This document shows positions 19,663-41,969 of a DNA stretch of 64,000 nt, in pieces. Origin of the DNA: Candidatus Eiseniibacteriota bacterium (GTDB lineage Bacteria > Eisenbacteria > RBG-16-71-46 > CAIMUX01). A program made the position numbers and the translations under genes. Every line of letters starts with the position of its first letter. The first letter of the stretch is position 1. The stretch is taken from positions 1,085-65,084 of the forward strand of contig JAXLXQ010000018.1 in the NCBI GenBank assembly GCA_046327845.1. Reading direction: 5' to 3'. Below the pieces are notes generated by a model. It searched no databases. It was given only the letters and a program-made list of their open reading frames with translations, and was not told the origin of the DNA.

Positions 19663-19666
19663 GACC

Positions 19667-26084: not shown

Positions 26085-27515
26085 TCACCGACGCCGCGTC
26101 ATCACCAGGAGAAAGCCAAAGTCTCGATCGACCGCGAACTCACTCCGGATGCGCTGCCTCACTGAAGCGGGCAAGAGTCGAAAGTGGTCATCGACAATCA
26201 CCGCACGAACGCGAGGGTCATCTAGCACCCCGAGTAGTTCGCTCTCGAGTTTCCCTGGTGGCAGGAGTCGGATCACATCGGAGTTGAGGAAGAAGTAGCG
26301 ATAAGCCGGCAGGCGCGTGAGGTACAGGCCGGACCAGAGGTCGAGCACGCGGTCCTCGGGGCGCGTCGCGCGGAGCACCGTGCGCAGCACCTCGACTTCG
26401 ACTCCCTGGCGCTGCACCGGAAGCAGCGCGACGCAGGGCGGCACGAGCAGCGCCAGGGGGAGCGCGACCCGGAAGGCGACGCCGCGGAACGACGCCCCGA
26501 TCGCAAGCACGACGCGGTGGCTGGCCCATGCAGCGGTGATGGCGAGCGCCGGCAGCACGAAGAGGAAGTATTGCCGCAGCGGCGCGTTCATCAGGAAGAA
26601 GCCGGCCAGCGCCGCGAGCAAGCTGCACGGGATCATCGTTCGCGGCGGACACTCGGGGAGCACTTCGCGTGAGCGCAGCAGTTGCCCGACGCCGATCGCG
26701 CCCAGCACCCAGGTCACAGGGTTGGCCTTCAGGATCGCCCCGCCCAAGAGCCCCCACCGCGTGCCCCACGGATCGTCGATCGTCATGTGGGCCGACGTTC
26801 CGATGCAGTCGTGCCAGAAGCCGCGAAGCGCCCCGGTCGAGGCGAGGACCGCGAGGATCATGGACGAGACGATGGCCCCGCCCAGGAGAGTCCACACGAT
26901 CGGCGCGGCCGCAGCGAAGCTCTTGGAGTCGCGCGCTCGATCGGAGAGAAGTCTGCCGAAGAGCGCACCGACAGCGGCGAAGAGCGCCTTGGGCGTGAAG
27001 AAGAGTGCGAGTCCGAAGGCAACGCCGGCTGCGCTCCACGCCACGCGCCCGCGTCGCGCAAGCAACCAGATCCCGAGCAGCAGGAAGAAGGCTCCGGGCA
27101 CGTCGGGCCGCACCTCCACTCCCTTCTCGAAGAAGTAGGCGGAGGTGAGGAGGAGGAGAGGCGCCAACAGCGCGCCGGTCACTCCGGCCAATCGCCTGGT
27201 CACGAGCGCGGTGATGAGGAGGATGCCCAGGCACGGCGCGAGCATCGCCCAGCGCGCCGCGCGGATGAGCGGCTCGGCGCCGAGCCCGCTTCGCGCGAGC
27301 GGCTGGAGCGACCAGTAGAGGAGCGGCGGGTGATTCTCGAAGAGCGAACCGTAGAGCGACTCGCCGTGCGCGACGGCGTAGGCCGCATTCAGGTGCTCCA
27401 ACTCATCGACATCGAGGAAGCGAGTCGGCGTGACCGAGATCCGAAAGGCGAGCGCGACCAGCAGAAAGGCTCCAAGAACCCACAACCAAGCGCGCTCGAG
27501 GCGGGTCACGTTCAT
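26085..27515 (-). CDS. GT-C fold glycosyltransferase (ArnT/PMT-like, polyprenyl-phosphate-sugar dependent), ~476 aa, polytopic
   Basis: Trimmed to MNVTRLERAWLWVLGAFLLV, which gives an ATGA overlap with the GT2 stop. DVDELEH acidic motif in the first periplasmic loop. About 11 TM helices followed by a soluble C-terminal domain. Confidence 0.7.
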   Translation of the reverse strand: MNVTRLERAWLWVLGAFLLVALAFRISVTPTRFLDVDELEHLNAAYAVAHGESLYGSLFENHPPLLYWSLQPLARSGLGAEPLIRAARWAMLAPCLGILLITALVTRRLAGVTGALLAPLLLLTSAYFFEKGVEVRPDVPGAFFLLLGIWLLARRGRVAWSAAGVAFGLALFFTPKALFAAVGALFGRLLSDRARDSKSFAAAAPIVWTLLGGAIVSSMILAVLASTGALRGFWHDCIGTSAHMTIDDPWGTRWGLLGGAILKANPVTWVLGAIGVGQLLRSREVLPECPPRTMIPCSLLAALAGFFLMNAPLRQYFLFVLPALAITAAWASHRVVLAIGASFRGVAFRVALPLALLVPPCVALLPVQRQGVEVEVLRTVLRATRPEDRVLDLWSGLYLTRLPAYRYFFLNSDVIRLLPPGKLESELLGVLDDPRVRAVIVDDHFRLLPASVRQRIRSEFAVDRDFGFLLVMTRRR

Positions 27516-28315
27516 CCTTGCGGCATATCCGACCGCCGCGCCGGGTCGCGCTCCACCACCTCGAGCCTTCGTCCGTCGGCGCGCAGAAAACGTGGCGTGT
27601 AGATGCCGAGGCGATCGAGGAAACCGCCCCACGATGCGCCGAGCACGCCCAATCCATAGCGCACGCTCCGCGCGAAGTTGATGCTCGAGGCTTCCGGGAA
27701 GTAGCGCGTCGGACAGGTGATCTCGCCGATGGTGTAGCCGCGGCGAATGATCTGCACCAGCATCTGGTTGTCGAAGACGAAGTCATCGGAGTTCTCGAGC
27801 AGCGGCAGGCTCTCGAGCACGCGCCGATGAAAGGCGCGAAAGCCGGTGTGGTACTCCGACAGCTTGTACTTCACGAGGAGGTTCTCGATCAGGGTGAGCG
27901 CGCGGTTCGAAACGTACTTGTACAACGGCATGCCGCCGGACAGCGCGCCCACGCCCAGGATCCTCGAACCGAGCACGACGTCGAACTGCCCTGTCGCGAT
28001 GAGCGACGCCATCGCGGTGACCAATCGCGGTGAGTATTGATAGTCCGGGTGGACCATCACCACGATCTCTTCGCCGCCGCGGAGCGCCTCGGCGTAGCAG
28101 GTCTTCTGGTTGCCGCCATAGCCGCGATTCACGGGGTGCAGAAAGGTGTCGATTCCCAACCGCCGCGCCACCTCGACGGTGGCATCGGCGCTCTGATCGT
28201 CGACCAGGATGACGCGATCGACGACGTCGTGCGGCAGCTCGCGATAGGTCTGCTCGAGCGTCTTCGCCGCGTTGTACGCCGGCATGACGACGCATACTCG
28301 GCAACCGTCGATCAC
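27512..28315 (-). CDS. GT2 family glycosyltransferase (polyprenyl-phosphate sugar synthase, DPM1/ArnC/GtrB-like)
   Basis: VVMPAYNAAKTL, ILVDDQSAD, NRGYGGNQK, HPDYQY. GTG start at 28315 chosen because GGGGGA lies 3 nt upstream and a 12-bp hairpin occupies 28401-28429. The track ORF extends to 28432. Confidence 0.8.
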   Translation of the reverse strand: MIDGCRVCVVMPAYNAAKTLEQTYRELPHDVVDRVILVDDQSADATVEVARRLGIDTFLHPVNRGYGGNQKTCYAEALRGGEEIVVMVHPDYQYSPRLVTAMASLIATGQFDVVLGSRILGVGALSGGMPLYKYVSNRALTLIENLLVKYKLSEYHTGFRAFHRRVLESLPLLENSDDFVFDNQMLVQIIRRGYTIGEITCPTRYFPEASSINFARSVRYGLGVLGASWGGFLDRLGIYTPRFLRADGRRLEVVERDPARRSDMPQG

Positions 28316-28400
28316 ACTTCCCCCTTGCGTAGGCGCCCGCGGTCGCCGCCCGCTCCTCCGCGGTGGCCCCGGTCGCGCGGAGGACATCGTAACAGGCGAA

Positions 28401-28429
28401 GCCCCGCCCGGGGTCATCCCGGGCGGGGC
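28401..28429 (-). terminator. Strong GC hairpin (12-bp stem, 5-nt loop) between the 42-heme cytochrome gene and the glycosyltransferase genes
   Basis: GCCCCGCCCGGG-GTCAT-CCCGGGCGGGGC. Starts about 40 nt after the cytochrome stop. No clear U-tract, so it may be a terminator, an attenuator or an mRNA-stabilising end. Confidence 0.45.
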
Positions 28430-28469
28430 CACTCTTCGGGCGCCCGCGTGCCTCCGACCTAGCGTGCCG

Positions 28470-31400
28470 CTAGTGGGCCGCCGTGTGGCACTGGATGCAC
28501 AGATCGCGACGTCGATCGGCTTGCAGCTGGAAGTCGAACTGCGAGGCGTGCGGGTTGTGGCACGACAGGCAGGTCAACGGGCCGTCGTTCCGAGGATCCT
28601 TGTACTGCGCGCCCAGGGGGTGCGTGTGCTTGGTTCCGTCGGCGTGGCAGGTCTGGCACAGCTCGTCGACGTTCGCCTTCAAGAGCTTCCCTTGATCGGC
28701 GCCGTGCGGCTGATGGCAGGAGCTACAGTCCGGCGTCTTGTTCAGGTGGCTCGACTTCCCCTGGAACATCGCCGGGTCATGGCAATTGCCGCAGACCGCG
28801 AGCTGTGAGCTGCTCTTCATCAGCGCCTTGCCGCTGCCGGCGTGCGGCGAGTGGCAGTTGAGGCACGCCTCGTCCTCGGTCATGGCCGGGTGCGTCACCG
28901 ACTTCGCCATCTCCTCCTTGATCTTGGGATGGCAGGTGGTGCACGCCTCCGGCCCCGTCGCCTTTCGCCCGCCGTTCGGGGTGTGGCAGGCCGCGCAGTT
29001 CCCCTGCGCGAAGGGCGGGTGAGTCGAGGCCTGCATGAGGTTGAGCTGCTTCGACGCGTGCGGGTCATGGCAGCTCAGACACGCGTCGGCCTCAAGCGCG
29101 TAGTTCTTGTGCTTCGCCTTGAGCGCGGGCGTGATCTGATGGCACGACTGGCAAAGCTCGCCCATCGGCTTCAAGAGTAGCGACTGCTCGCCGGAGCCGT
29201 GCGGGTTGTGGCAAGCCTGGCACTTGTCCTTCGCCACCGGGTCGTGCAGCTTCGCGCCCTCGAACGAGGCGACCAGATCCTTGTGACACTCACCGCAGAG
29301 CGCCTTCCCCTCCGCCTTCAGCAGCTTGGGATGGGTCGAGCGATGCGGATCGTGGCAGTCGCCGCACTTCCCTTCGGCCACCGGCGGATGGTGGACGCTC
29401 GCCCCCTCGGCGATGTCGGAGTGGCACTCCTTGCACAGATCCGGCTGCGCCTTCTGCAGCAGCTTGTCACGCTCGGAGGCGTGCGGGTTGTGGCAGATCA
29501 CGCACTCGCCGTCGGCAACCGGCGGATGCACCGACTCGCCGGCCGCGGCCGGCGCGGTGATGTCGGGATGGCAGGTGGCGCACTTCTCCGTCATCGAGCC
29601 GGTGAGCGGGCCCGGAGTGCCTTCGCCGTGACAGACCGCGCACTCGCCCGAATCGAATGGCGGGTGCCGCTTGGATGCGAGCAAGCCCTTCGACTCGGAC
29701 CCGTGCGGCTGATGGCAGCCGACGCAGTTGAGCTTCGCCAGCTCGGCTCCCTTGTGCTTCGCCTGGAGCGCAGGGTCGCTGGTGTCGTGACACTGCGCGC
29801 AGAGTTCGGTGGCAGCCGCGATCAGCATGCCGGGCGAGTCGCTGCCGTGGGCAACGTGGCAGGCAGTGCAGGCGCCGTCCCGTGCCGGCGGGTGCGCGGT
29901 GGGCAGGTTGATCGCCTTGGCGATGTCGGCGTGGCAGCTCAAGCAGGTCGCGCGCTCCGACGCGATCAGGAGGTGCGGCTCCTTGGATCCATGTCCACGG
30001 TGGCAGGAGTCGCAGCGCCCTTCCTTTACCGGCTCGTGCGGATTGGTCTTGGCCGCCGCCTGCTCCAGCACGTCGCCGTGGCACTCGCCGCACACTTCCT
30101 TCGCCTCGGCGCGCAGCCCGTTTTCCTTCTTACCAGAGTGCGGCGCGTGGCAGATCAGGCAGTCCTGATCGACGAAGCCTTGGTGCACGACCGGCAGGTT
30201 GCCCTGCGCGACCACGCCAGAGTGGCAACCCTTGCACAGGTCGGGGCTCTGCGCCTTCAGGAGGTGCGCCTGATCTCCGCCGTGCACCGTGTGGCAGGAG
30301 CCGCAATCGCCGCCGGCGAAGGGCGGGTGCGCGTACTCGTCGCCGCGAGCCGGTTCGGCATTCTCGTGACACTGCCCGCAGAGCTTTGCCTCGGGCGCGG
30401 CCAGCAGGTGGGGTTCATTGGAGAGGTGCGGGGCGTGGCAGTCGGTGCAGGCCATCGACTCGAGCGCGGGGTGCTTGACCGTGGCGTTGGTCGCGAGTGA
30501 GTCGATGTCGGCGTGGCACTGCTTGCAGGTTTCGCCGTTCTCCGCGCGAAGGAGACCACCGTGATCCGAGCCGTGGGGGTCGTGGCACTTCCCGCATTGA
30601 TCATCGTTGAACGGCGCGTGCACGGAGGCCACCGGGCTGGTCGGAATGAGCCCGTCGTGGCATTCGTTGCAAAGCTCCTTCACTTCCTTCTTGAGCACCG
30701 CCTCGGTCGTGCCCTTGTGCGGGTCGTGACAGGTGAGGCACTCCCCTTCGGCAGCAGGGGGATGCGGATGGGCGCGATCGCCGAGCTTCTCCAACTCGCC
30801 GTGACAGGTGGTGCAGAGTTCCGGCACCTGCGCCACGAGCGCTCCGCCGGTCGGGGTGGTGTGACAGGCCTCGCAGTTGCCCGTCCTGTACGGTTCGTGA
30901 CCGCCGGTCACGAGAAGCTGCTTCTCCCTGCTGCCGTGCGGCTCGTGGCAGGCGCCGCAGGGCGCTTGCTTCCACCCGTCGCCCGGGTGTTTGGCGGCGA
31001 GGGCGTCGCGTGACTTGCCGTGGCAGCTCAGGCAGAGCGCTTCCTCGTCCTGGTTGAGCAGCTTGGCCGTGGTGTTGCCGTGCACGGTGTGGCATGTGCC
31101 GCACTTCTCGCTCGAGGCCGGCGGATGCCCGCCCGCCGCGATCTTCTCTTTCACGTCCTCATGACAGGCAAGGCAGGAGAGATCGGCGTCGTAGCGACGG
31201 AGCAAGCCGTCGTCGGTCGAATTGTGAGGCGAGTGACAGACGAGGCAGTCGCCCCGCTCGGGCACGGGGTGGCCGGACTTCATCGCGCCGGTCGCGCTCT
31301 GCTCCGCGTGACAGCCGATGCAGAGGTCGGGCGGATTGGCCAGGAGAACGAGCTTTTGATCGAAGCCGTGACGCTTGTGACAGGCCTCGCACTTTCCGTC

Positions 31401-31574
31401 CGCCACCGGCTTGTGCTCGGTACCGGCCTTGTAGCGCTCGACCGCGTCAGCGTGGCAGTCGACGCACTCGCGCCCGCCCTTCGACTTCGACGCGGAAAGG
31501 CTGGACGCCGCCGGCCAGAGCGCGGCGATCGAGACGAGAGCCGCGATCGAGAACAGCTTCGCGGCGCGTTTCAT
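28470..31574 (-). CDS. Giant multiheme c-type cytochrome, 42 CxxCH motifs, built from ~21 tandem diheme (paired-CxxCH) repeats; Sec signal peptide
   Basis: I counted 42 CxxCH motifs in 1034 aa (one per ~25 aa). Recurring unit: HPP-x-G-x-C-xx-CH-x-PH-x(5-8)-LL-x(6-10)-LC-xx-CH. N-terminus: MKRAAKLFSIAALVSIAALWPAASS. Confidence 0.95.
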   Translation of the reverse strand: MKRAAKLFSIAALVSIAALWPAASSLSASKSKGGRECVDCHADAVERYKAGTEHKPVADGKCEACHKRHGFDQKLVLLANPPDLCIGCHAEQSATGAMKSGHPVPERGDCLVCHSPHNSTDDGLLRRYDADLSCLACHEDVKEKIAAGGHPPASSEKCGTCHTVHGNTTAKLLNQDEEALCLSCHGKSRDALAAKHPGDGWKQAPCGACHEPHGSREKQLLVTGGHEPYRTGNCEACHTTPTGGALVAQVPELCTTCHGELEKLGDRAHPHPPAAEGECLTCHDPHKGTTEAVLKKEVKELCNECHDGLIPTSPVASVHAPFNDDQCGKCHDPHGSDHGGLLRAENGETCKQCHADIDSLATNATVKHPALESMACTDCHAPHLSNEPHLLAAPEAKLCGQCHENAEPARGDEYAHPPFAGGDCGSCHTVHGGDQAHLLKAQSPDLCKGCHSGVVAQGNLPVVHQGFVDQDCLICHAPHSGKKENGLRAEAKEVCGECHGDVLEQAAAKTNPHEPVKEGRCDSCHRGHGSKEPHLLIASERATCLSCHADIAKAINLPTAHPPARDGACTACHVAHGSDSPGMLIAAATELCAQCHDTSDPALQAKHKGAELAKLNCVGCHQPHGSESKGLLASKRHPPFDSGECAVCHGEGTPGPLTGSMTEKCATCHPDITAPAAAGESVHPPVADGECVICHNPHASERDKLLQKAQPDLCKECHSDIAEGASVHHPPVAEGKCGDCHDPHRSTHPKLLKAEGKALCGECHKDLVASFEGAKLHDPVAKDKCQACHNPHGSGEQSLLLKPMGELCQSCHQITPALKAKHKNYALEADACLSCHDPHASKQLNLMQASTHPPFAQGNCAACHTPNGGRKATGPEACTTCHPKIKEEMAKSVTHPAMTEDEACLNCHSPHAGSGKALMKSSSQLAVCGNCHDPAMFQGKSSHLNKTPDCSSCHQPHGADQGKLLKANVDELCQTCHADGTKHTHPLGAQYKDPRNDGPLTCLSCHNPHASQFDFQLQADRRRDLCIQCHTAAH

Positions 31575-32065
31575 GGGGTGGTCCTCCCTATCCCTGGAGT
31601 CGCTGTCGTCGGGGCCTTGCCCGGCGCCCAGATCAGCGAGTCGACTTGAAACGAGAGCTCGGACTTGGGCGCGAAGTGCGGCACGTCGGTGAAGAAGGCC
31701 CAGCTGGCCTCGACGCGTTTGCTCCCCTCGTACACTTCCACCTTGAGCGCCGGATTGCGCATCTCCTTCGACCGCGAGATGACCTTCTTCGTGCGGTCGT
31801 CGATCGCGAAGTCAGGGACGAAGTCGACGATCTTGCCGTAGAAGTCGGTGTCGCCGATCTGAAACTTCTCACCGGGCACTGCGCGCTCGATCTCCACGAA
31901 GTCGGGGTGCATGCGGTGCGTGACCCGGAGCTGCACCGCCTGGAGCGAGGAATCGCACGAGGAAATGACGAAACCTAGGAGGGCCGCGGCGAGCAAGCGC
32001 ACGCGCGGGTTCCACCGCTCGAGTCTGGCGTCGAGTCGATGGCGGAAGCCGGGGAACTTCATCAT
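31571..32065 (-). CDS. Small lipoprotein (164 aa), unknown function
   Basis: Lipobox LLGFVISSC. ATGA overlaps with both flanking genes. Confidence 0.7.
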   Translation of the reverse strand: MMKFPGFRHRLDARLERWNPRVRLLAAALLGFVISSCDSSLQAVQLRVTHRMHPDFVEIERAVPGEKFQIGDTDFYGKIVDFVPDFAIDDRTKKVISRSKEMRNPALKVEVYEGSKRVEASWAFFTDVPHFAPKSELSFQVDSLIWAPGKAPTTATPGIGRTTP

Positions 32066-32721
32066 CGATCGTTCTCCAACGAGGCTCGGCGCGCGGGGTC
32101 CAGGGGAGGACCGACGCGACAGACGTTGCGCATCGACTGCGCCAGCTGGTGCGAGATGACCGCTGCCAGTCGGTCCGCGGTGCGGATGCGTCCGATGCCG
32201 AAGAAGGTCTCGCCGTCGTCTCCCTCGCGCGAGGCCGATCCAGCCCAGATCACGAGGCCGTTCGAAGCGTCGATCAGGCGCAGGGTGATCGCCACCACCG
32301 GCAGACCACGCGGCCGGTCCTTACCCTCCGCGTAGTCGATGCCACGCCCACCAGGGAGGTAGTCGGCGCCGGCATGGGAGGCGAGCGATTCCATCTGCTC
32401 GGCCGACATCCGGTCGGGGTCGAGGATGCGAAGCTGACGGAGGGCGCCGGACACCAGGCCCGGATCCTGGATGCGGAAGTGATCCAGCGCGCCCAATTCG
32501 ACCAGGAGCTTCTGCACGAAAACATTCCCCGCCGCCTCGGACGAGGTCAGATTGCCGAGCGGCAAGAACGCGACGGTGGCGCCCGGTCGAACCCCTGATT
32601 CGGCGACCGTGAACTGCTGCAAGCCCGGGGCGCATCCGACGAGGGTCACGAGCAGGAGCAGCGACAGGGCGGTCGCGGCCACCGACATCCGTCGTGAGTG
32701 CGAAGGGATCACGCGCTGCAT
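32062..32721 (-). CDS. Lipoprotein with LpoB/PelC/TolB-N-like signature
   Basis: Trimmed to MQRVIPSHSRRMSVAATALSLLLLVTLVGC (lipobox) with GAGAGG SD. ATVAFLPLGNLTSSEAAGNVFVQKLLVELG matches the (V/I)A(V/I)LPF-x-N pattern of this lipoprotein fold class. Confidence 0.65.
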   Translation of the reverse strand: MQRVIPSHSRRMSVAATALSLLLLVTLVGCAPGLQQFTVAESGVRPGATVAFLPLGNLTSSEAAGNVFVQKLLVELGALDHFRIQDPGLVSGALRQLRILDPDRMSAEQMESLASHAGADYLPGGRGIDYAEGKDRPRGLPVVAITLRLIDASNGLVIWAGSASREGDDGETFFGIGRIRTADRLAAVISHQLAQSMRNVCRVGPPLDPARRASLENDR

Positions 32722-32731
32722 CTTGCGCCTC

Positions 32732-33349
32732 TCAGTCCGGCAGGCGCCCGACCAGCTCATCCGCCACCGACTCGGTCAGCTCGGAGAGGGTCCGCGCGCC
32801 GCCCAGGTTCAAGATCGGTATCGCGGCGCCACCGCGTCGCGTCACGCTGGTCGACCAGACGATCGTGCCCGTCTTGACGTCGACCAATCGAACCTCGACC
32901 GACACCAGCGGCCGTCCGGTGGCCGATCCCTCGAGGAAGTCGCGCACCGTCCCCTCGAAGATGCCCTGCACGCCGGTCGAATCGCCGAGGGCCGAGAGGT
33001 TGGTGATCGGCAGCCCGATCGGCGGCGCGGTGTTGGCGCCGACCGAGATCGAGTAGGCCGAGAGGAACTGCCCCGGTTCAGCCACGGCAAACTTGCGCGA
33101 GAAGATGAGGTGCGAGGTGAAGGCGGAGGACATCTTGTCCCCGGCCAATCGATCGTTGGTCAGCGATGCGAACGGAAGGACGCCGACGCGCTCGTAATAG
33201 CCCCAGTCGGCCTCCTCGTGGAGGAAGCTGTTGCTGCCGCCACACCCCATGGCCAGCAGCAGGAGGATCGCACCGATCAGCAATCGCACTCGCACGACTT
33301 CCCCTCCCCTCGTTCCTCCTGCCCAACTACCCGGTCGCGATTGGCTCAC
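32732..33349 (-). CDS. Lipoprotein, distant paralog of the previous one (LpoB/PelC/TolB-N-like)
   Basis: Lipobox LLLLAMGC. RVGVLPFASLTNDRLAGDKMSSAFTSHL. Starts 4 nt after the barrel gene stop. Confidence 0.65.
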   Translation of the reverse strand: MSQSRPGSWAGGTRGGEVVRVRLLIGAILLLLAMGCGGSNSFLHEEADWGYYERVGVLPFASLTNDRLAGDKMSSAFTSHLIFSRKFAVAEPGQFLSAYSISVGANTAPPIGLPITNLSALGDSTGVQGIFEGTVRDFLEGSATGRPLVSVEVRLVDVKTGTIVWSTSVTRRGGAAIPILNLGGARTLSELTESVADELVGRLPD

Positions 33350-33353
33350 GAAG

Positions 33354-34994
33354 TCAGAAGCGCTGGAGCAGCGACGCGCTCCACAGGCTCGACCCCGAAC
33401 CGACCGCGGGCAGCGCTCGCGTGTGCGACGCCGTCATCTCCCACAGCCGGGAGACGCGAACACGAAGACTCCCGCCGCTGGTGATGCCGAAGGTCCGGCC
33501 CCTTCGCGCATCCTGATCGGAGGCGCGGACGGCGCTCCAGCTCCACGCGGCATCTCCCCAGCGCCACGGCGCCGACACGCTGCCCGAGACGCCGTACTTC
33601 GATCCGGCCGCCTGCTCGCGCAGTTGGTGTCCGTCGTAGCGCATCGTGATCGAACCACCGCGGGCCAAACTCAGAATCGTCTCCACCGTGTAGTAGACGC
33701 GATCCATGTGGCGCAGCGAGATCTTCTGACCTAAGCGATCGGCTTGGGTGCTGGCCTGAACTTGTACACCGTCCACCGGCCGGAGGCGAAGCTCGATGTT
33801 TTGGGCCACCCGGTAGCGCTGCGCGGCGGGTACGCCCTCCAACGCCTGACCGGTCCAGTCGATGGCAAAGATCGCGCCGGGGCGGAGCGGACCATCGAAG
33901 CGCAGGCCCAACTGATCTGAAGGAGTGCTGGCGCCGGTCTGCGCCAGGACCCAGTTGCGGGCCGCGGTCGCGGTCGCGGTCATCTCCGGCAGGACGTGGT
34001 GGCGGGTGACCAGCTGCGCGCGCATGTAGTCGTTGATCGACTCCGCGCCGGAGACGAGCTGCCGTTGATAGGTGCGAATCACCGCCACGTTCGAACCCTG
34101 CCAAGGCTCGATCGAGGTGTTGACGCTGCCGTCCAGATTGCGGTCGTTGCGATCGCGCCTGGCGCGTTCCCGGTAGCGCAGCGTCTCCCAGTTCAGGTCG
34201 CCGCCCAGGCTCCAGACGCGGGTCGGGCGGAGGGTGACGCGCGACTCCAAGTCATCTCGGGTGTTTCGCCGGGTGGAGCCGTCCCCGATTCGATCACGCC
34301 CCTGCACGTGCCGCGCGCCGAAGCCGCTCGTCATCCAGCTGCCGGTGGTGTGCTGCGCCTCCGCGCCGAATTGGGTCTCGCGCGTGCGACGACGCACCGC
34401 GGCCGCGCCCGGAATGGGGATCCCACCGATCGTGCGCTGACTGTTCGAGTCCTGCCAACGGTCGGAATAGTCGAAGTCGATTCCGCGGAGCCTCTGCGCC
34501 ACGGCGAGCCGTTGCTCGTCGACCTGCGTGTTGTTGGGATTGCCGATGCTGTTCGAACCGCCGTAGCGGCGTTCCCTCGAGGTCGACTCGAAGCGCAGGT
34601 TGGGCAGGCCTTCCTTGTGGAGCTGCCCGCCCCACGAGGTCTCATTGAGCTTCCACGTGGGCGGTTGATTGATCGAGACGCGCTGATCCGGGCGGTTGCG
34701 GAAGTAGAGGTCGAGCGGCGTGCTTCGAAACTGCAGGTCGCCGCGTCCGCGGAAGGTGTGGACACGCTGCTCGAAATCTTCTTCACGCTGCAACTGCCCG
34801 AGGAAAACGAGGGACCGGTCTAGGCCAAGGTGAAAGAGGGTGCGGCACTCTAGCACTTGATCGGACGTGCGGAATCTCCCGTTTGCTAGGCGGGAGGAGA
34901 GGTAGGTCGAATGCAGGCGATAGTCGACCTCGGCCTGGGCCGGTCCAACGAAACTCAAGACGGCAATGGCCACGAGACCGCTCCGGGCGCGCAT
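33354..34994 (-). CDS. Outer-membrane beta-barrel protein (546 aa)
   Basis: Signal peptide MRARSGLVAIAVLSFVGPAQA. Alternating amphipathic strand pattern rich in R, D, Y, G and T. C-terminal SLWSASLLQRF with terminal Phe (OMP signature). Its start overlaps the stop of the upstream cytochrome gene (TAATG). Confidence 0.8.
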   Translation of the reverse strand: MRARSGLVAIAVLSFVGPAQAEVDYRLHSTYLSSRLANGRFRTSDQVLECRTLFHLGLDRSLVFLGQLQREEDFEQRVHTFRGRGDLQFRSTPLDLYFRNRPDQRVSINQPPTWKLNETSWGGQLHKEGLPNLRFESTSRERRYGGSNSIGNPNNTQVDEQRLAVAQRLRGIDFDYSDRWQDSNSQRTIGGIPIPGAAAVRRRTRETQFGAEAQHTTGSWMTSGFGARHVQGRDRIGDGSTRRNTRDDLESRVTLRPTRVWSLGGDLNWETLRYRERARRDRNDRNLDGSVNTSIEPWQGSNVAVIRTYQRQLVSGAESINDYMRAQLVTRHHVLPEMTATATAARNWVLAQTGASTPSDQLGLRFDGPLRPGAIFAIDWTGQALEGVPAAQRYRVAQNIELRLRPVDGVQVQASTQADRLGQKISLRHMDRVYYTVETILSLARGGSITMRYDGHQLREQAAGSKYGVSGSVSAPWRWGDAAWSWSAVRASDQDARRGRTFGITSGGSLRVRVSRLWEMTASHTRALPAVGSGSSLWSASLLQRF

Positions 34995-36103
34995 TAGTCC
35001 TCCCCCTCACCTGGGTGGTGGACGTTCTCGCTGGTCGCGGAGCTGTAGTCGGAACCGTGGCAACCGAAGCATCCCCGGACGTCGGTGGCCGCGTGGCCGC
35101 CCTCGTCCGGGAGCGTGTTCATCACGATGCCGTCGACCGTGATGGAGCCCGGCACGCCGTTCGCCGGGATGTGGCAGCCAAGGCAGAACGCCCGGTTGGC
35201 CGCCGGATTGGTTTGGGTATCGACGAGCCCACGCCAGCCGGGTCGCTCGTCGCTGATCAAGAAGGCGTTCGGCGAAACGCCGTCGTTCCCGCGCGAACCG
35301 TGCGGGTTGTGGCACTCGTAGCAGGGGAGCGGATCGCCCGCCCGCATGTAGCTGGGCCAGGAGATCGCGATCTCGGGATTGCGGCGGATCTGGTGGCCGG
35401 CGCGCTGGTCATTGTTGATCGCGGGGTCGTAGTAGTCGGCGATGAGGCGATTCGGCGCATCCATGCCGACGGGACCCGAGGGACCGTGGCAGTCGAGGCA
35501 GGCCGCCATCCGAACCGCCGCGCGACCGGGCCAGCTTCCGCCCCAGGGTTGGTAGACGGCCTTCAAAAGATCGTGCGGGCCCGCCCCTTCGTGGGGATCG
35601 TGGCAGTTGCGGCAAAGGCCGCTGCCGTCGCCGTCTTCGATCGGCATGTCGGGGTCGTTGCGGTGCGGCGAGTAGTAGTGGCCGTTCGCGGCGACCCGCG
35701 TGTCTTCGAAGACCAGCATCCCCGGCCAGCGTCGTCTGAGCAGCACGCCCGGGGTGCGTTGGCCGCCGCTGTTGGCTTCGAAGTAACCAGGAGCGTCGGC
35801 GGTCTCGGGGAGGCGATCACTCTCGATCGCGGGATAACCCGGCGGGCGCTGATCATGGCAGCCACCGATTCCGCCGGCCCCGTAGCAAAGTTGATTGTCG
35901 TTCGGAGCGAAGAGGATCTTCGGCTCGGGCGTCATCCCCTCGTTGTCGTGAAGCGGATGGCACTGCGAGCACTCGCCGATGGTGGGTGGATCGGTCGGGA
36001 TGCGGTTGACGCCGTAGATCGGGTCATAGTGCGGATTGGCGCTCGGTGTCTGCGCCAGGCTGAGCAAGGTCATGAGAACGATCGGTCCGCCGGGTACGAA
36101 CAT
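34994..36103 (-). CDS. Multiheme c-type cytochrome: 6 CxxCH plus one possible Cx8CH site
   Basis: CSQCH, CRNCH, CLDCH, CYECH, CLGCH, CFGCH and CYGAGGIGGCH. Trimmed to MFVPGGPIVLMTLLSLAQTPSA (signal) with GGTGAGGAGA SD. The longer track ORF would run through a hairpin. Confidence 0.85.
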   Translation of the reverse strand: MFVPGGPIVLMTLLSLAQTPSANPHYDPIYGVNRIPTDPPTIGECSQCHPLHDNEGMTPEPKILFAPNDNQLCYGAGGIGGCHDQRPPGYPAIESDRLPETADAPGYFEANSGGQRTPGVLLRRRWPGMLVFEDTRVAANGHYYSPHRNDPDMPIEDGDGSGLCRNCHDPHEGAGPHDLLKAVYQPWGGSWPGRAAVRMAACLDCHGPSGPVGMDAPNRLIADYYDPAINNDQRAGHQIRRNPEIAISWPSYMRAGDPLPCYECHNPHGSRGNDGVSPNAFLISDERPGWRGLVDTQTNPAANRAFCLGCHIPANGVPGSITVDGIVMNTLPDEGGHAATDVRGCFGCHGSDYSSATSENVHHPGEGED

Positions 36104-36135: not shown

Positions 36136-36167
36136 GGGGCACGGCTGCGCGATGCGCCCCGTGCCCC
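36136..36167 (-). other. GC-rich hairpin in the OmcS-like / heptaheme intergenic region
   Basis: GGGGCACGG...CCGTGCCCC with an inner GCGC-GAT-GCGC extension. Lies about 35 nt upstream of the next start codon. Confidence 0.4.
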
Positions 36168-36240: not shown

Positions 36241-36266
36241 GCTCGCGCCGCCTACGCGGCGCGAGC
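36241..36266 (-). terminator. Perfect 10-bp hairpin immediately after the OmcS-like gene
   Basis: GCTCGCGCCG-CCTACG-CGGCGCGAGC, 10 nt after the TAG at 36277-36279. No U-tract. Confidence 0.5.
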
Positions 36267-36276
36267 GTCTATCCTA

Positions 36277-37281
36277 CTAGCCCTGAATGTGGCACTGCTT
36301 GCAGAGATCCTTCACCGCCACGCCATCGTCACCTTCCTCGGACACGGTGCCCGTGCCCTTCATGAAGATGAGGCCGAAGGCGTGCTTGTTGCCGTGCGCC
36401 TTGTGGCAGCTCATGCAGGACGGGGTCACGCCGGACGGCGGGGGATCCCACACGCCGGTCGGGCTCATCACGTGCACGCGGTTGGTGCGGCTGGTGAAGG
36501 TGGTGAGGCTGGAGTGCCCACCGGTCAGGCCGCCGATGTTGGCGTCAGCGTTCGGGTGGCGGAGCCACTCGGCGCCAGTCGCGTCACCGCCGACTTCCGG
36601 GCCGCCCTTGGCGCCGTGGAAGTTGGTGTGGCAGCCCTTGCAGAACATCGCGTACTTCGACGCGGTCTGATCCGGCTCGTTCCAGTCGACGTTGTTGTAG
36701 GCGTAGTGCGAGGTCATCGGGGTGGTGGCGCGCTCGAAGATGTCCTTGGTCAGGTCGTTCGTGCCGATCGCGTAGGTCACCGTCGAGTTCGACGGGGCCG
36801 TACCGGTCTTCACCCGAAGGTTACGATAGGCGCCGCCGGCACCGTGCTGATGGTGGCAGTCGGTGCAGCTCAGGCCGTTCGTGTTCGACCAGGTGCCGCC
36901 AGGAGCCACGTCGGTCGCGTCCAGGGTGTGGCCGGTCGCGTGGTAGTAGGGCGCCGAGCCGTTGCGGTTCAGACCACCAGCCTCGCGAACGTAGCTGTTG
37001 GAGTTCGCGCCGAGGACGTCCGGTGCGAACGAGGTGTTGTTGTGGCAGGTCAGGCACAGGTCGTTGACGTCATTACGCAGCAACGCCTCGTACGGACCAC
37101 TGGCGCCGAGCGGCGCGTAGATCCCGGTGCCGTCCTCGTTGTAGCCGTGGGTCTGGCTATAGTGCATGACGTGGCAGTCGGCGCAAACTAGCGTCGTCCC
37201 GGTGTGAAAGTCCCCGGCCATGGCAAGGGGGACTCCGATCAGAAGCGCGAATGCTCCGAGAAGAAGTCCGAGCCGTTTCAT
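36277..37281 (-). CDS. OmcS-like hexaheme c-type cytochrome (candidate filament-forming subunit)
   Basis: Six CxxCH: CADCH, CLTCH, CTDCH, CKGCH, CMSCH, CKQCH. Signal MKRLGLLLGAFALLIGVPLAMA. The mature end GDFHTGTTLVCADCHVMH resembles Geobacter OmcS FHSGGVAECEGCHTMH (from memory). FCKGCHTNFHG...WLRHP resembles WCANCHT...LRHP. The final LCKQCH resembles LCNKCH. Confidence 0.75.
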   Translation of the reverse strand: MKRLGLLLGAFALLIGVPLAMAGDFHTGTTLVCADCHVMHYSQTHGYNEDGTGIYAPLGASGPYEALLRNDVNDLCLTCHNNTSFAPDVLGANSNSYVREAGGLNRNGSAPYYHATGHTLDATDVAPGGTWSNTNGLSCTDCHHQHGAGGAYRNLRVKTGTAPSNSTVTYAIGTNDLTKDIFERATTPMTSHYAYNNVDWNEPDQTASKYAMFCKGCHTNFHGAKGGPEVGGDATGAEWLRHPNADANIGGLTGGHSSLTTFTSRTNRVHVMSPTGVWDPPPSGVTPSCMSCHKAHGNKHAFGLIFMKGTGTVSEEGDDGVAVKDLCKQCHIQG

Positions 37282-37325
37282 GTCAATCCTCACTTTCGGT
37301 ACGTCTTGGGGCGCCGAAACTACCG

Positions 37326-38441
37326 CTACCGCGAAGCCCCCGGCGCCAGGATGTCAGTCCGTCCACCCAACCCATCCACCCCAACTCCCACCGAGTCCCG
37401 ACCCGTGGGGGTCGTAGCCTCGGCTGAGATCTCAGGCGCGCTCATCTGGAAAGCAGAGAGGCGCGCGCCCAACCTCTCCAGCACGAACAGGCGATCCTTT
37501 CCGTCCGTGGCCATCGCCGCGGGATAGAGAAGATCGCCCAGCTCCCTGCCTGCCGCCCCAACCATTCCGACGTAGGTCCCGTCCAGAGCGAAGACCTTAA
37601 TCGTCTGGCGGATCGCATCCGCCACCCACATCCGCCCGGAGGCGGCCACCACTGCGGTAGGAAGAGAGAAGTTCTCGTTGCCAACATCGTGCGTTCCCAG
37701 CGCGAGCAGAAGCTCGTGCTCGGAATCGTAGACACGGACCGGCGGCTCGGCCGTCGCGTCCGTGATGTACAAGCGACCCGCGGGGTCCATGTACAAACTG
37801 GTGATCGCGCCGAAGGGCTTCGCCCCGGCGTCGCGGCCATCCACCGTCCAGAGGATCGTGTCGTCGCTCGCCACGCAGACGATCACGGCGTCATGCGAGC
37901 CGACCGCGACGATGAGGTGATCTTCGGGATCGAGCGCTAATGACACCGGTCGGAAGTCGCCGGGAATCGCGCTGGAGGAGTTCGGGTCGGGCGCAGCCCA
38001 TCCCTTGAACTGCGCCGGGTCGATCTGGCGGACGGGCTGGCCGAGGAGGTCCATCACCTCGACCCGGTCCGAGAGGGCGTCGATCAAGTAGAGGAGACCA
38101 TCCCGCGTCACCGCGAGATTCTTCGGCTCGCCCGGAATCGGACCGCGCGGGCTATCCGCGAAGACTTGGTAGCTACGAATCTGCATCCCCGACCCGTCGA
38201 GGGCGCGGATGCGGTGGTTGCCGGTGTCGGCGACCCAAAGAAGGTCCCCCTGAGCGTCGTAAGCCAGGCCGAGAGGGCGGTTGAAGTCGACCGCGGCGGA
38301 AGTCCTGTCGACCATCCAAAGAGGGGTCGCCTGCACAGCCCCCTCGGCTTGGCTTGGCGACGCCCAGAGGGATGCGGCCAGGACACCCGAGATCCAGCCC
38401 GTCACGATCCACCCACCGGACCGCTGCGGAAGGCGCCCCAT
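37326..38441 (-). CDS. NHL-repeat six-bladed beta-propeller protein, secreted
   Basis: Repeats such as LLWVADTGNHRIRALD, LLYLIDALSDRVEVMD, RLYITDATAEPPVRVYD, RMWVADAIRQTIKVFA and RLFVLERLGARLSAFQ. Start at MGRLPQRSGGWIVTGWISGVLAASLWASPSQA (GGAGG SD). The track ORF extends to 38525. Confidence 0.8.
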   Translation of the reverse strand: MGRLPQRSGGWIVTGWISGVLAASLWASPSQAEGAVQATPLWMVDRTSAAVDFNRPLGLAYDAQGDLLWVADTGNHRIRALDGSGMQIRSYQVFADSPRGPIPGEPKNLAVTRDGLLYLIDALSDRVEVMDLLGQPVRQIDPAQFKGWAAPDPNSSSAIPGDFRPVSLALDPEDHLIVAVGSHDAVIVCVASDDTILWTVDGRDAGAKPFGAITSLYMDPAGRLYITDATAEPPVRVYDSEHELLLALGTHDVGNENFSLPTAVVAASGRMWVADAIRQTIKVFALDGTYVGMVGAAGRELGDLLYPAAMATDGKDRLFVLERLGARLSAFQMSAPEISAEATTPTGRDSVGVGVDGLGGRTDILAPGASR

Positions 38442-38642
38442 GGTGGCCTCCGTCGCGATCCCCGTTTCGTGAATGGACTGGTTCATCTTGGTGTCCCTGG
38501 TTATGTGCCAGTTTTCACTAGTCACCTCGCGTGCCGAATTGGTCCAGAATTGGCCCTCAAACCAGCTGGGAGCTAATTGCCTGCGCAGAGGAAAGTTACG
38601 GAGAGAAAATCAGCAGCCCGGTCAAGTCGTAGCGTGGATGAG

Positions 38643-39445: not shown

Positions 39446-39638
39446 CCCGGAGCGGCGCCGTCTTGCTCACGCGAGGGACGATCTCTAGACTCCCCGCACG
39501 CAACTGAAGGCGGCTTCGCGCAAACGCAGGCGTTGCGAGCGCCGTAGCCACCCTCCGCTGCTCCCCGGCAAGCCAGTGTACGTGATCTCACTTGTCCGCA
39601 TGGAAGTTGAACGTTCGAACAAGGAGGACAGTGTAGCA

Positions 39639-41969
39639 ATGAGGTCCCCAGCCATCCGCGTCAGTGGCTTTCTTGCCATCGCCGCCATCGCCACCACGTC
39701 TTCGGCAATGGCACCCCCCCCAGGCACGACCTCGGTCGCGCAAGATCCGTGGGTGCACGGCGAGATCCTTGTACAACTTTCGACCGCGGCGATGCGGTCG
39801 GCGGACTTTCACAGCAACCTGATGTCGTCGGGCCGGACCGGAATCGCGTTGGTCGACCAGAGCCTCCGCGCCATCGGGTCATTCGAGGTCTCGAGTGTCT
39901 TCGAGCGGGGCAACGATCCGGGCGCCCGCTCCGCCGCCGGACTGGACCGCATCTTCCGCGTGCGCTACGCCGATTTGATGACTCCTGATCAGGCGGCCCG
40001 GATGTTCGCCGCGAACGGCGACGTCGTGTTCGCCGAACCGAATTTCATCGCGCACGCGCTGGTCACGCCGAACGATCCGACCTACCCACTGCAGTGGGCG
40101 CACAACAACACCGGTCAGGCGATCAGCTACACCGGCGGCAACGTCGGTACGGCCGACTGCGACACCGACACTGATCAAGCGTGGGATCTGCAGACCGGCA
40201 GCGCGACCTTCATCCTCTCGGTGATCGACACGGGCGTCGACACCGGGCATCCGGAGTTCGCGGGACGAATCGTCGCCGGCTTCGACTACGTGAACAACGA
40301 CTCGAACCCGACCGACGACAATGGCCACGGCACCTGCTGCGCCGGAATCGCGGCCGGGGCCGGCAACAACGCGGCGGGCACCGCCGGCGTGGCCTGGAAC
40401 GTGAAGATCATGCCGGTCAAGGTGCTCGACTCCGCCGGCAGCGGCTCCTACACCTGGGTCGCGAATGGAATGACCTTCGCCGCCGACAATGGCGCCAAGA
40501 TCCTCTCCATGAGCCTCGGCGGTCCGGCATCCTCGACGCTCCAGACCGCGGTGAACTACGCGGTGAATACGAAGGGGTGCGCCCTCTTCGCTGCCACTGG
40601 CAACTCGAACGCCTCGGCGCTCGATTATCCGGCGGCATACAGCAACGTGATCTCGGTCGGCGCGCTGTCGCCGTGCAATGAGCGGAAGAGCCCGTCGAGC
40701 TGCGACGGCGAGAACTGGTGGGGCTCGAACTACGGCACCGGGATCGACTTCATGGCGCCCGGCGTGCGCATCCATTGCCCGGACATCCGCGGTGCCGGCG
40801 GTTTCGGTTCCGGTGACTACATCTCGGACTTCAACGGCACCTCATCGGCCACTCCGCATGCCGCGGGGATCGGTGCGCTCGTCTGGTCACAGAATCCGGC
40901 GTTGACCAACACCGGACTCCTCACCGTTCTGCAAAACAACTGCGATGACATCGGCACCGCCGGCTATGACACGCAGACCGGCTACGGTCGCTTGAACGCC
41001 TTCCGCGCCGTGCAGAACGCCGCGGGTGGTGGTGGCGGCGGCGGCACTCCCATCACCGTCTTCTCGGAGGACTTCGAGACCAACGTGGTGCCCGGCACGG
41101 TCTGGGGCGCCAACGACGCGAACGGCACGAGCGGTGCCGACTACTGGGGCGACCAGTCGAGCGGCTCGGGTGCGCGGGTACACGGTGGAAGCTGGAGCGC
41201 CTACTGCGCGGACAATTCCAGCGTCGCCGGGCAGCGCTACGACAACAACATGACCGCGTACATGACCAAGACCGCATCGGTCAGCCTGAGTGGCGTGACC
41301 AACGTCACCTTCTCCTTCTGGTTCTGGAACGCGACCTTCAACGCCAGCGACTACCTGGCCTTCCAGTACTGGAACGGCACAGCTTGGGTCGAGCAGCAGC
41401 GCTGGTCCGGCGCGAGCACCGGCTGGACGCAGGCGAGCTACACGCTCACCGGCTTCACCACGTTCCAGTGGCGCTGGCTCTTCTTCTCGAACTCCAGCAG
41501 CACTGCCGAAGGGGCGTACATCGACGACATCGTGATCTCCGGCGTGACCGCGATCGCCCCGCCGCAGCCGATGGCGGTAACCCTTCTTAGCGAACGCACC
41601 GAGCCCGACATGACCGCCTCGCTTCGGGGCGATCTCTCGAGCGTGAAGGGAAACCCGGTCGAGATTGAAGCGCCCGAGCTGGCGTCGATCGAGCCGGGGC
41701 ACCTGGCCGCGTCTCCCAACCCGGTGATGAGCAGCGCGACGCTCCGCTTCGCCCTCGCCATCCCTGGTTCGGTGAGTCTTGAGGTGTACAGCGCGGATGG
41801 ACGGCGCGTGGCTCGAGTCTTCGAGGGCGCTCTCGCCGCCGGTCCGCACAGTCTCGACTGGAACGGCGCGGGCGGCGACGGGCGCGCGCTTCCCGCCGGG
41901 GTCTACTATGCGCGGCTCAGCATCGACGGCGCGCTGAGCGCCGTCTCGAGGATGGTCCTCGTGAGGTAG
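39639..41969 (+). CDS. Subtilisin-like serine protease (S8) with FlgD-Ig/T9SS-like C-terminal sorting domain
   Basis: Catalytic triad contexts VIDTGVDTGHPEF, GHGTCCAGIAAG and GTSSATPHAAG. Start at MRSPAIRVSGFLAIAAIATTSSAMA with AAGGAGGA SD. C-terminus: SPNPVMSSATLRFAL...VYSADGRRVARV...GVYYARL...RMVLVR. Confidence 0.9.
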   Translation: MRSPAIRVSGFLAIAAIATTSSAMAPPPGTTSVAQDPWVHGEILVQLSTAAMRSADFHSNLMSSGRTGIALVDQSLRAIGSFEVSSVFERGNDPGARSAAGLDRIFRVRYADLMTPDQAARMFAANGDVVFAEPNFIAHALVTPNDPTYPLQWAHNNTGQAISYTGGNVGTADCDTDTDQAWDLQTGSATFILSVIDTGVDTGHPEFAGRIVAGFDYVNNDSNPTDDNGHGTCCAGIAAGAGNNAAGTAGVAWNVKIMPVKVLDSAGSGSYTWVANGMTFAADNGAKILSMSLGGPASSTLQTAVNYAVNTKGCALFAATGNSNASALDYPAAYSNVISVGALSPCNERKSPSSCDGENWWGSNYGTGIDFMAPGVRIHCPDIRGAGGFGSGDYISDFNGTSSATPHAAGIGALVWSQNPALTNTGLLTVLQNNCDDIGTAGYDTQTGYGRLNAFRAVQNAAGGGGGGGTPITVFSEDFETNVVPGTVWGANDANGTSGADYWGDQSSGSGARVHGGSWSAYCADNSSVAGQRYDNNMTAYMTKTASVSLSGVTNVTFSFWFWNATFNASDYLAFQYWNGTAWVEQQRWSGASTGWTQASYTLTGFTTFQWRWLFFSNSSSTAEGAYIDDIVISGVTAIAPPQPMAVTLLSERTEPDMTASLRGDLSSVKGNPVEIEAPELASIEPGHLAASPNPVMSSATLRFALAIPGSVSLEVYSADGRRVARVFEGALAAGPHSLDWNGAGGDGRALPAGVYYARLSIDGALSAVSRMVLVR

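Follow-up and report, generated by a model that had tools for sequence, protein, structure and literature searches.

To our knowledge, structures of cytochrome nanowires come from only a few cultured Desulfuromonadia and from two archaea. In the filament of the hexaheme cytochrome OmcS of Geobacter, the 12 axial heme ligands are all His, 11 of them from the subunit's own chain and one, on heme 5, from the neighbour (PMC6584659), and it is His16 that ligates heme 5 of the adjacent subunit (PMC13319180). Large beta-barrels and beta-propellers are hallmarks of OmcS and OmcE nanowire loci, and a porin-like mounting model is now favoured for the wires (bioRxiv 10.1101/2025.10.22.684050). It has been proposed that OmcS assembly or expression requires the NHL-like protein GSU2505 (PMC9070056). 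According to a comparative study (mBio 2026), GSU2501-type OmcS-like genes always precede an eight-gene block, GSU2500-2493, which a passage of the same study, citing Shen et al. 2025, links to maturation and secretion of OmcS nanowires (PMC12977616). Here we describe a related locus from an uncultured bacterium, on a stretch of 64,000 nucleotides (the window) of Candidatus Eiseniibacteriota bacterium (GenBank assembly GCA_046327845.1, contig JAXLXQ010000018.1, positions 1,085 to 65,084). It encodes on the minus strand a compact hexaheme c-type cytochrome, genuinely homologous to OmcS though divergent from it.

The open reading frame (ORF) starts at an ATG (37281) with a GAGGA ribosome-binding site (RBS) 6 nt upstream, and ends in a TAG stop codon (36277-36279); an alternative GTG start at 37293 would give a longer ORF, but overlaps the RBS. 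The precursor has 334 residues, of which ~312 remain in the mature protein after cleavage of the predicted Sec signal peptide MKRLGLLLGAFALLIGVPLAMA before Gly-Asp. This peptide is without a lipobox cysteine, and the residues at the cleavage site (A22, G23 and D24) are near-invariant in the family. Six CxxCH motifs begin at residues 33, 76, 139, 214, 289 and 327. The mature chain opens with the arm GDFHTGTTLVCADCHVMH, in which G23-D-F-H26-T-G-T-T-L-V-C33-A-D-C36-H37-V-M-H40 has a spacing identical to that of OmcS F1-H2-S-G-G-V-A-E-C9-E-G-C12-H13-T-M-H16. The block common to both proteins is F-H-[ST]-G-x4-C-x-x-C-H-x-M-H, and the mature N-terminus probably has two residues (G-D) more than that of OmcS, Asp24 being conserved in the family. 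The heme-4 context reads F213-CKGCHT...L240-R-H242-P in the window protein and W-CANCHT...LRHP in OmcS, the last heme motif is DLCKQCHIQG and ALCNKCHAKD, respectively, and both chains end three residues past the last heme His. A first-pass annotation, made from the sequence alone, had drawn attention to the N-terminal parallel including CxxCH-x-M-H, to the (F/W)CxxCHT...LRHP and terminal LCxxCH landmarks, and to a length about 100 residues below that of OmcS. The landmarks are all present, and the gap between the precursors is exactly 100 residues (334 vs. 434; 23% shorter). The shortening is spread across loops 2-3, 3-4, 4-5 and 5-6, each of which is cut by 14-36 residues (motif-start spacings are 43/63/75/75/38 here vs. 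38/93/99/89/74 in OmcS), and the cofactor-binding residues are all kept.

Homology to OmcS is established by several comparisons. A profile of 32 family members finds OmcS (6EF8/6NEF) as its sole match in the PDB (E 3.5e-7), and the alignment is collinear from the start of the mature chain to heme 5; a single-sequence phmmer search of the PDB returned no match, even at E <= 10. Direct BLASTP against OmcS gives E 2e-8 at ~25% identity. To compare families, a canonical OmcS family was gathered via the OmcS residues in the PDB-search alignment (it includes P0121, 'c-type cytochrome OmcS [Geobacter]'), and its profile aligns with that of the window-type family in hhalign at 99.7% probability (E 1.7e-25; 258 columns), reaching from the beginning of the mature protein to beyond heme 5. 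Pfam and NCBIfam return only generic paired-CXXCH, c7 and decaheme matches for the window cytochrome, and true OmcS likewise draws just generic matches, so that there is no curated OmcS model for comparison. The window-type family is large and tightly conserved (1,225 clusters at 90% identity), with members named only 'hypothetical' or 'cytochrome c3 family'. An exhaustive profile search of 1.84 billion representatives yields 1,053 clusters at 50% identity, 207 of them at E <= 1e-30. The window-family profile also matches OmcS-length proteins (437-440 aa) at E about 1e-46, and the window-type and OmcS-type groups therefore form a continuum. OmcS homologs have been collected elsewhere with a length within about 10% of OmcS (PMC12977616); at 23% below, the window-type proteins fall outside this range and constitute a separate compact subfamily rather than Geobacter-type orthologs.

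The fold is also that of OmcS. AlphaFold2 run on a joint alignment of 146 sequences (128 window-type and 18 OmcS-type) produced a model with a predicted local distance difference test (pLDDT) score of 93.2 and a predicted TM-score (pTM) of 0.88; with the 32 close homologs only, pLDDT was 47 and the model unusable. In a Foldseek search of the PDB with the good model, 6ef8_A is the only significant match (E 1.2e-6, prob 1.00, TMq 0.49/TMt 0.41, 420 columns). The moderate TM-score is due to the loop deletions, and the match weighs more because the OmcS fold normally matches only its own homologs (PMC9473688). The proposal of the first-pass annotation, an OmcS-like hexaheme cytochrome, is thus confirmed by the two comparisons it had suggested, i.e. 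alignments with E-values to the OmcS family that are significant beyond mere CxxCH spacing, and a structural model for which OmcS is the sole significant match.

Exactly 12 His are invariant or nearly so in the joint alignment (H26, 37, 40, 80, 118, 143, 146, 218, 242, 293, 296 and 331), and likewise the 12 Cys of the CxxCH motifs. With six CxxCH motifs and all six distal-His positions retained, these 12 His would, by analogy with OmcS, be the axial heme ligands. His26, His37 and His40 are conserved superfamily-wide. His40 aligns residue for residue with OmcS His16 in both hhalign and HMMER alignments, and 126 of the 128 window-type and 17 of the 18 OmcS-type sequences have its equivalent; the heme-5 motif, which would accept it, is invariant in all 146. 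The motif CxxCH-x-x-H alone is generic: it is the signature of Paired_CXXCH and occurs at four places in the window protein, so that position and context, and not the motif, carry the OmcS signal. The first-pass annotation had named OmcS His16 as the ligand of a neighbouring subunit's heme in the filament, which is correct (PMC13319180, PMC6584659), and had equated it with the extra His after heme motif 1, an assignment that the alignments uphold.

The cytochrome gene lies in a co-oriented, tightly packed cluster of eight genes (Table 1), which encode, in order, an NHL-repeat propeller, the OmcS-like protein, a second hexaheme cytochrome (MHC382), a 546-aa putative barrel protein, two lipoproteins (LP205, CsgG/GNA1162-like; LP232, LpoB-like), a small lipoprotein and a 42-heme cytochrome. 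Neither the 546-aa protein nor the small lipoprotein has a match in Pfam or NCBIfam, porin families included for the former. The 42-heme cytochrome draws DmsE/GSU2203-type decaheme repeat matches and is a probable periplasmic electron conduit, which could serve as a wire across the periplasm. Species-representative genomes were scanned for the OmcS-like cytochrome, and at least 180 of them have a relative. The best 80, all of them metagenome-assembled genomes (MAGs), are labelled Eisenbacteria, Krumholzibacteriia, Latescibacterota, Zixibacteria, Gemmatimonadota, Ignavibacteria, Planctomycetota, Acidobacteriota, Armatimonadota and others, the closest among them being Eisenbacteria (81% amino acid and about 80% nucleotide identity). 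The cluster is conserved in at least ten mostly uncultured phyla. Across 82 loci, where many contigs are truncated and all counts are lower bounds, the NHL gene is directly upstream on the same strand in 68, MHC382 is syntenic in 55, the CsgG/GNA1162-like and LpoB-like lipoproteins are present in 62 each, the small lipoprotein in 37 and the giant cytochrome in 56; the barrel slot is filled in 53 loci by an ORF with a median of 563 aa.

Several of these genes have counterparts next to omcS in Geobacterales. The window NHL protein matches the 315-aa NHL-like protein encoded directly 5' of Geobacter omcS (GSU2505 type) over its full length (E 3e-7). For a GSU2501-type locus with its companion block we used Geotalea daltonii (locus L085), where the order is histidine kinase/response regulator, NHL, OmcS-like, YncE propeller, 739-aa protein, GNA1162-like lipoprotein, LpoB-like protein, peptidyl-prolyl isomerase (PPIase), 657-aa multiheme cytochrome and a further multiheme cytochrome. 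The window NHL protein matches the 320-aa Geotalea NHL protein at E 1e-8, LP205 the GNA1162-like lipoprotein at E 4e-21 (full length), LP232 the C-terminal domain of the LpoB-like protein at E 3e-15, and the 42-heme cytochrome the 657-aa multiheme protein at E 6e-97. In both loci the two lipoproteins follow the OmcS-like gene in the same order, GNA1162/CsgG-like and then LpoB-like. The NHL protein, the two CsgG/LpoB-like lipoproteins and the giant multiheme cytochrome are homologous to, and collinear with, the omcS-companion genes of Geobacterales. With these four components shared and YncE and PPIase missing from the window (see below), the cluster is a reduced variant of the omcS-companion system.

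MHC382 contains a three-heme module that is distantly similar to the N-terminal half of the OmcS-like protein (hhalign 93%, E 2.7e-7); the similarity is confined to these 104 columns, and a full paralog of the OmcT kind was rejected for this reason. In addition to the six CxxCH motifs, MHC382 contains the C-x8-CH sequence CYGAGGIGGCH at residues about 72-82 (35860-35900, minus strand), and the homologous position of the metagenomic protein P0374 has C-x4-CH (CLTVGCH), which may be a seventh, atypical heme site. P0374 itself (1,879 aa) joins an OmcS-like module (residues 1 to about 325) to an MHC382 homolog (330-671; 39% identity, E 2e-65), followed by more than 1,000 further heme-rich residues. 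This Rosetta-stone link indicates that the OmcS-like protein and MHC382 work together. There is also a second architecture, with the MHC382 homolog about 6.5-7.8 kb upstream of the OmcS-like gene rather than directly downstream (L021, L024, L025, L028, L032, L035, L047-L049, L059, L073, L078-L080 and L084); the MAGs concerned are labelled Ignavibacteria or Zixibacteria, some only 'uncultured bacterium'.

The 186-nt RNA between the cytochrome gene and MHC382 is strongly folded (-96.2 kcal/mol, z = -3.56 vs. dinucleotide shuffles) and contains two stem-loops. The first has arms at 36241-36251/36256-36266, a perfect stem as the first-pass annotation had stated, with 11 rather than 10 base pairs; the second, which it had also listed, is real, with outer arms at 36136-36144/36159-36167. 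A consensus terminator scan missed both hairpins because they have no T-tract. The annotation had further connected this arrangement with very high expression, an idea that gains support from the related loci: over 80 of them, the 100 nt past the stop codon have a median folding z of -3.0, with z < -2 in 72%, as compared with a median of about 0 and 3-8% at control positions of the same loci. Where MHC382 is the next gene, it begins mostly about 90-250 nt downstream of the OmcS-like gene. By analogy with major pilus subunits, a conserved stem-loop here is the arrangement expected if the cytochrome were needed in large excess over its partners. The promoter scan found no sigma-70-like promoter. 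Control by sigma-54 was considered and rejected, since consensus matches (10) are fewer than the 19 expected by chance and none lies 5' of the NHL or cytochrome gene.

Taken together, the homology, the ligand set, the gene context and the stem-loop make us expect, with moderate confidence, that the protein polymerises into an OmcS-type filament; such wires are then probably made well beyond Geobacter. In the mechanism we propose, hemes would be attached in the periplasm, and the protein would then pass through, or be mounted on, an outer-membrane channel formed by the 546-aa putative barrel and the two lipoproteins. Surface export is suggested by these channel-type neighbours, the protein itself carrying a Sec signal peptide only. 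Polymerisation would be head-to-tail: the arm would reach into the next protomer, where His40 (mature His18) would become the sixth ligand to heme 5 (C289/C292/H293), and heme 1 would stack on heme 6', giving a continuous, insulated bis-His heme chain. Electrons would travel from the quinone pool via the 42-heme periplasmic cytochrome and MHC382, perhaps the base or an adaptor, to the filament. The stem-loop after the gene may, through partial termination or by protecting the 3' end, bring the major subunit to a higher transcript and protein dosage than the accessory genes downstream.

Several observations weigh against polymerisation. The heme 5-6 segment, which in OmcS is part of the subunit interface, is halved (38 vs. 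74 residues between motif starts) and lies outside the hhalign alignment. Window-type proteins have additional conserved His (H222 in 121/128, H45 in 109/128 and H256 in 71/128), any of which could in principle ligate heme 5 in cis. Among the accessory genes, BLASTP finds no similarity between the 546-aa protein and the 739-aa protein of Geotalea, and the profile match is weak (84%, E 8e-6, 131 columns); tblastn with the 474- and 580-aa Geotalea proteins gives no match to the YncE-type propeller or the PPIase (SurA/rotamase) in the 64-kb window (E <= 1e-3), outside of which homologs could lie. As to expression, the cytochrome gene has the lowest effective number of codons (Nc) and the highest third-position GC content (GC3) of 17 neighbours, by a marginal difference only, and codon bias does not set it apart. 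Finally, Geobacter OmcS paralogs that retain His16, and indeed most OmcS paralogs of Geobacter, are not known to form wires (PMC12977616), and the P0374 fusion, which fits a fixed complex or a filament base, is no less compatible with a fixed surface complex than with a homopolymer.

The last two points also favour the alternative that we take most seriously, a possible but rather unlikely one, namely that the protein has the OmcS fold and does not polymerise. It would then act outside the cell as the terminal reductase (or oxidase) of a porin-cytochrome conduit, much like MtrC/OmcA or ExtC, and would be docked in monomeric or hetero-oligomeric form on MHC382 and the 546-aa barrel. The operon does contain the parts of such a conduit, with a putative barrel, a 42-heme periplasmic cytochrome and secreted multiheme cytochromes. 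However, the trans-ligating His and the entire N-terminal arm are 98% conserved, and heme 5 would be left without a sixth ligand if there were no partner chain; the accessory genes are homologous to a block linked with nanowire maturation and secretion; and the conserved stem-loop implies a dosage far above that of the partner genes, which would be superfluous for a 1:1 complex. A soluble periplasmic hexaheme carrier, shuttling between an inner-membrane quinol dehydrogenase and the outer-membrane complex, appears improbable. The Sec signal peptide without a lipobox or recognisable secretion tag would suit it, as would an NrfCD-type module nearby, but the sole structural relative is the extracellular OmcS, the cluster already has a 42-heme periplasm-spanning cytochrome, and the gene is linked to channel-type lipoproteins and a barrel. 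That the likeness to OmcS is generic CxxCH spacing without common ancestry can be dismissed: the generic domain matches and the empty phmmer search that could speak for it are outweighed by the profile search, the hhalign E-value and the Foldseek result, by OmcS being the sole PDB match by profile and fold among hundreds of multiheme cytochromes, by 12/12 conserved ligand positions and shared flanking genes, and by true OmcS having equally generic matches.

If the OmcS-type filament is real, the locus could represent something more specific, although we regard this extension as doubtful. Window-type proteins would build a minimal nanowire system distinct from that of Geobacter, the dominant form of OmcS-type wire in nature, with a 312-residue subunit polymerising via His40 and heme 5 without PPIase or YncE. 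MHC382 would serve as a dedicated base or adaptor, its N-terminal CxxCH-x-x-H capping the open heme 5 of the first protomer and wiring the filament to the 42-heme cytochrome through the barrel-lipoprotein channel, and P0374 would be a fossil of this junction.

Table 1 Features of the OmcS-like locus; positions refer to the 64,000-nucleotide window.
Feature	Position	Strand	Basis
Compact OmcS-type hexaheme c-type cytochrome precursor gene	36277..37281	-	ORF and translation, six CxxCH, OmcS homology, OmcS-like fold
Sec signal peptide, residues 1-22 (...LAMA/GD, cleaved at the slash)	37216..37281	-	sequence reading; predicted helix residues 2-15
N-terminal arm with heme-1 motif and His40	37162..37215	-	hhalign and HMMER alignments to OmcS F1..H16
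Heme-5 motif C289-M-S-C292-H293-K-A-H296, presumed acceptor of the neighbour protomer's His	36394..36417	-	aligns with OmcS CLSCHRAH (C328..H335)
Stem-loop 1, perfect 11-bp GC-rich stem, 4-nt loop, starts 10 nt past the stop codon, no U-tract	36241..36266	-	RNA folding; conserved position
Stem-loop 2, 9-bp outer and inner 4-bp stem, just 5' of the next gene's RBS	36136..36167	-	RNA folding
NHL-repeat beta-propeller	37326..38486	-	Pfam NHL E 1.9e-16; probable ATG 38486; ends 44 nt 5' of the cytochrome gene
MHC382, second secreted hexaheme cytochrome, 369 aa from ATG 36103	34994..36103	-	six CxxCH
546-aa protein, signal peptide, C-terminal Phe, putative outer-membrane beta-barrel (channel or anchor)	33354..34994	-	start overlaps the upstream gene's stop
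CsgG/GNA1162-like lipoprotein (LP205)	32732..33349	-	lipobox LLAMGC; Pfam CsgG and GNA1162-like, weak
LpoB-like lipoprotein (LP232)	32062..32760	-	lipobox LVTLVGC; Pfam LpoB, weak
Small lipoprotein, 164 aa	31571..32065	-	lipobox FVISSC
42-heme cytochrome, 1034 aa, 22 paired-CXXCH units	28470..31574	-	42 CxxCH; Pfam Paired_CXXCH_1 E 8e-207

A number of genes around the cluster deserve mention. Directly downstream lie a GT2 glycosyltransferase and a PMT_2-type GT-C (26085-28432, minus strand), and nearby are a HAMP histidine kinase and a sigma-54 response regulator (22341 to about 25400, plus strand). All four families also flank Geobacter omcS (L001), the GT2 proteins being 56% identical over 59 aa. 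Among the 80 other loci, neither GT2 nor PMT_2 has a match and the histidine kinase has one in only 9, and none of the four families is a conserved part of the cluster; the likeness to Geobacter may be coincidental, or the genes may form a system for cytochrome glycosylation. Tandem genes for an NrfC-like 4Fe-4S protein and an NrfD-like membrane protein (20363-22422, plus strand) are a candidate quinol-oxidising module that could feed periplasmic cytochromes. Just 5' of this pair, two tandem ORFs (265 and 229 aa; 18865-20356, plus strand) each have a glycine-cleavage H-protein (lipoyl-type) domain, an unusual arrangement. On the other side of the cluster there is an S8 subtilase with an N-terminal propeptide and C-terminal FlgD_ig domains (39576-41969, plus strand). 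OmcZ nanowires require the subtilisin-like protease OzpA. An S8 subtilase is found near the cytochrome gene in just 8/82 loci, which makes a link to the OmcS-like cytochrome unlikely.

Shen et al. 2025 are said to describe the assembly machinery as widespread and ancient. OmcS homologs have been reported from Anaeromyxobacter and Geoalkalibacter (PMC10954620) and from a Coriobacteriales MAG (28% identity; PMC7399161), and FeGenie has produced 'OmcS' matches in Krumholzibacteria and Thermodesulfovibrionia (PMC7914226, PMC8478452). An OmcS-like protein outside Geobacter, as put forward in the first-pass annotation, is therefore genuine but not new in itself, given the earlier homologs in Anaeromyxobacter, Geoalkalibacter, Coriobacteriales and Krumholzibacteria. 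For the compact subfamily of ~312 residues, its breadth over the FCB group and other uncultured phyla, and the eight-gene cluster, no description was found in the papers searched. The locus bears on the natural extent and the minimal parts of cytochrome nanowires, for which it offers a concrete compact candidate whose subunit is well below OmcS length and keeps every heme ligand. The cluster sits in phyla that are abundant in soil, sediment and the subsurface and are represented in culture by few members or none; should the protein polymerise, many uncultured lineages would share the trait of long-range extracellular electron transfer. A smaller subunit and a reduced accessory set would also be attractive for heterologous production of conductive protein wires, and secretion, anchoring and charging of OmcS-type wires become directly testable through the conserved NHL protein, the pair of lipoproteins and the fusion with MHC382.

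How does the locus compare with described systems? One comparison is with Desulfovibrio ferrophilus, where outer-membrane multiheme cytochromes are co-encoded and co-expressed with NHL-repeat beta-propellers (DFE_0448-0451/DFE_0461-0465) and occur in association with the cell surface or with nanofilaments (PMC5815863); these clusters were compared by description only, and are called divergent from OmcS by their authors (PMC5815863). OmcE (7TFS) and the archaeal tetraheme nanowires (PcECN and AvECN) have an insulated heme chain, a His donated by the neighbour and loci with a large beta-barrel and a beta-propeller, but four hemes vs. six here; the Foldseek match to 7tfs is not significant (E 4.1, prob 0.03), and PDB searches gave no sequence match to OmcE. 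The GSU2501-type block of L085 shares with the window the order NHL, OmcS-like, ..., large signal-peptide protein without Pfam match, GNA1162/CsgG-like, LpoB-like, ..., giant paired-CXXCH cytochrome. The window differs in having no YncE-type propeller or SurA/rotamase chaperone within its 64 kb, in adding the hexaheme MHC382 and the 164-aa lipoprotein, in a shorter barrel candidate (546 vs. 739 aa) and in a larger cytochrome (1034 aa with 42 hemes vs. 657 aa). From OmcS itself (GSU2504 of G. sulfurreducens, 6EF8/6NEF) the window protein is set apart by ~25% identity, a mature length of ~312 vs. 407 aa, the two extra N-terminal residues and the lack of an omcT-like tandem paralog, and its host is an uncultured, high-GC Eisenbacteria-like organism. 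What it has in common with OmcS is six collinear CxxCH motifs, every one of the 12 axial-His positions (the counterpart of His16 among them), the N-terminal block, the (F/W)CxxCHT...LRHP context and the C-terminus placed three residues past the last heme His, a low secondary-structure content with a significant Foldseek match, and the gene for an NHL-type propeller directly upstream.

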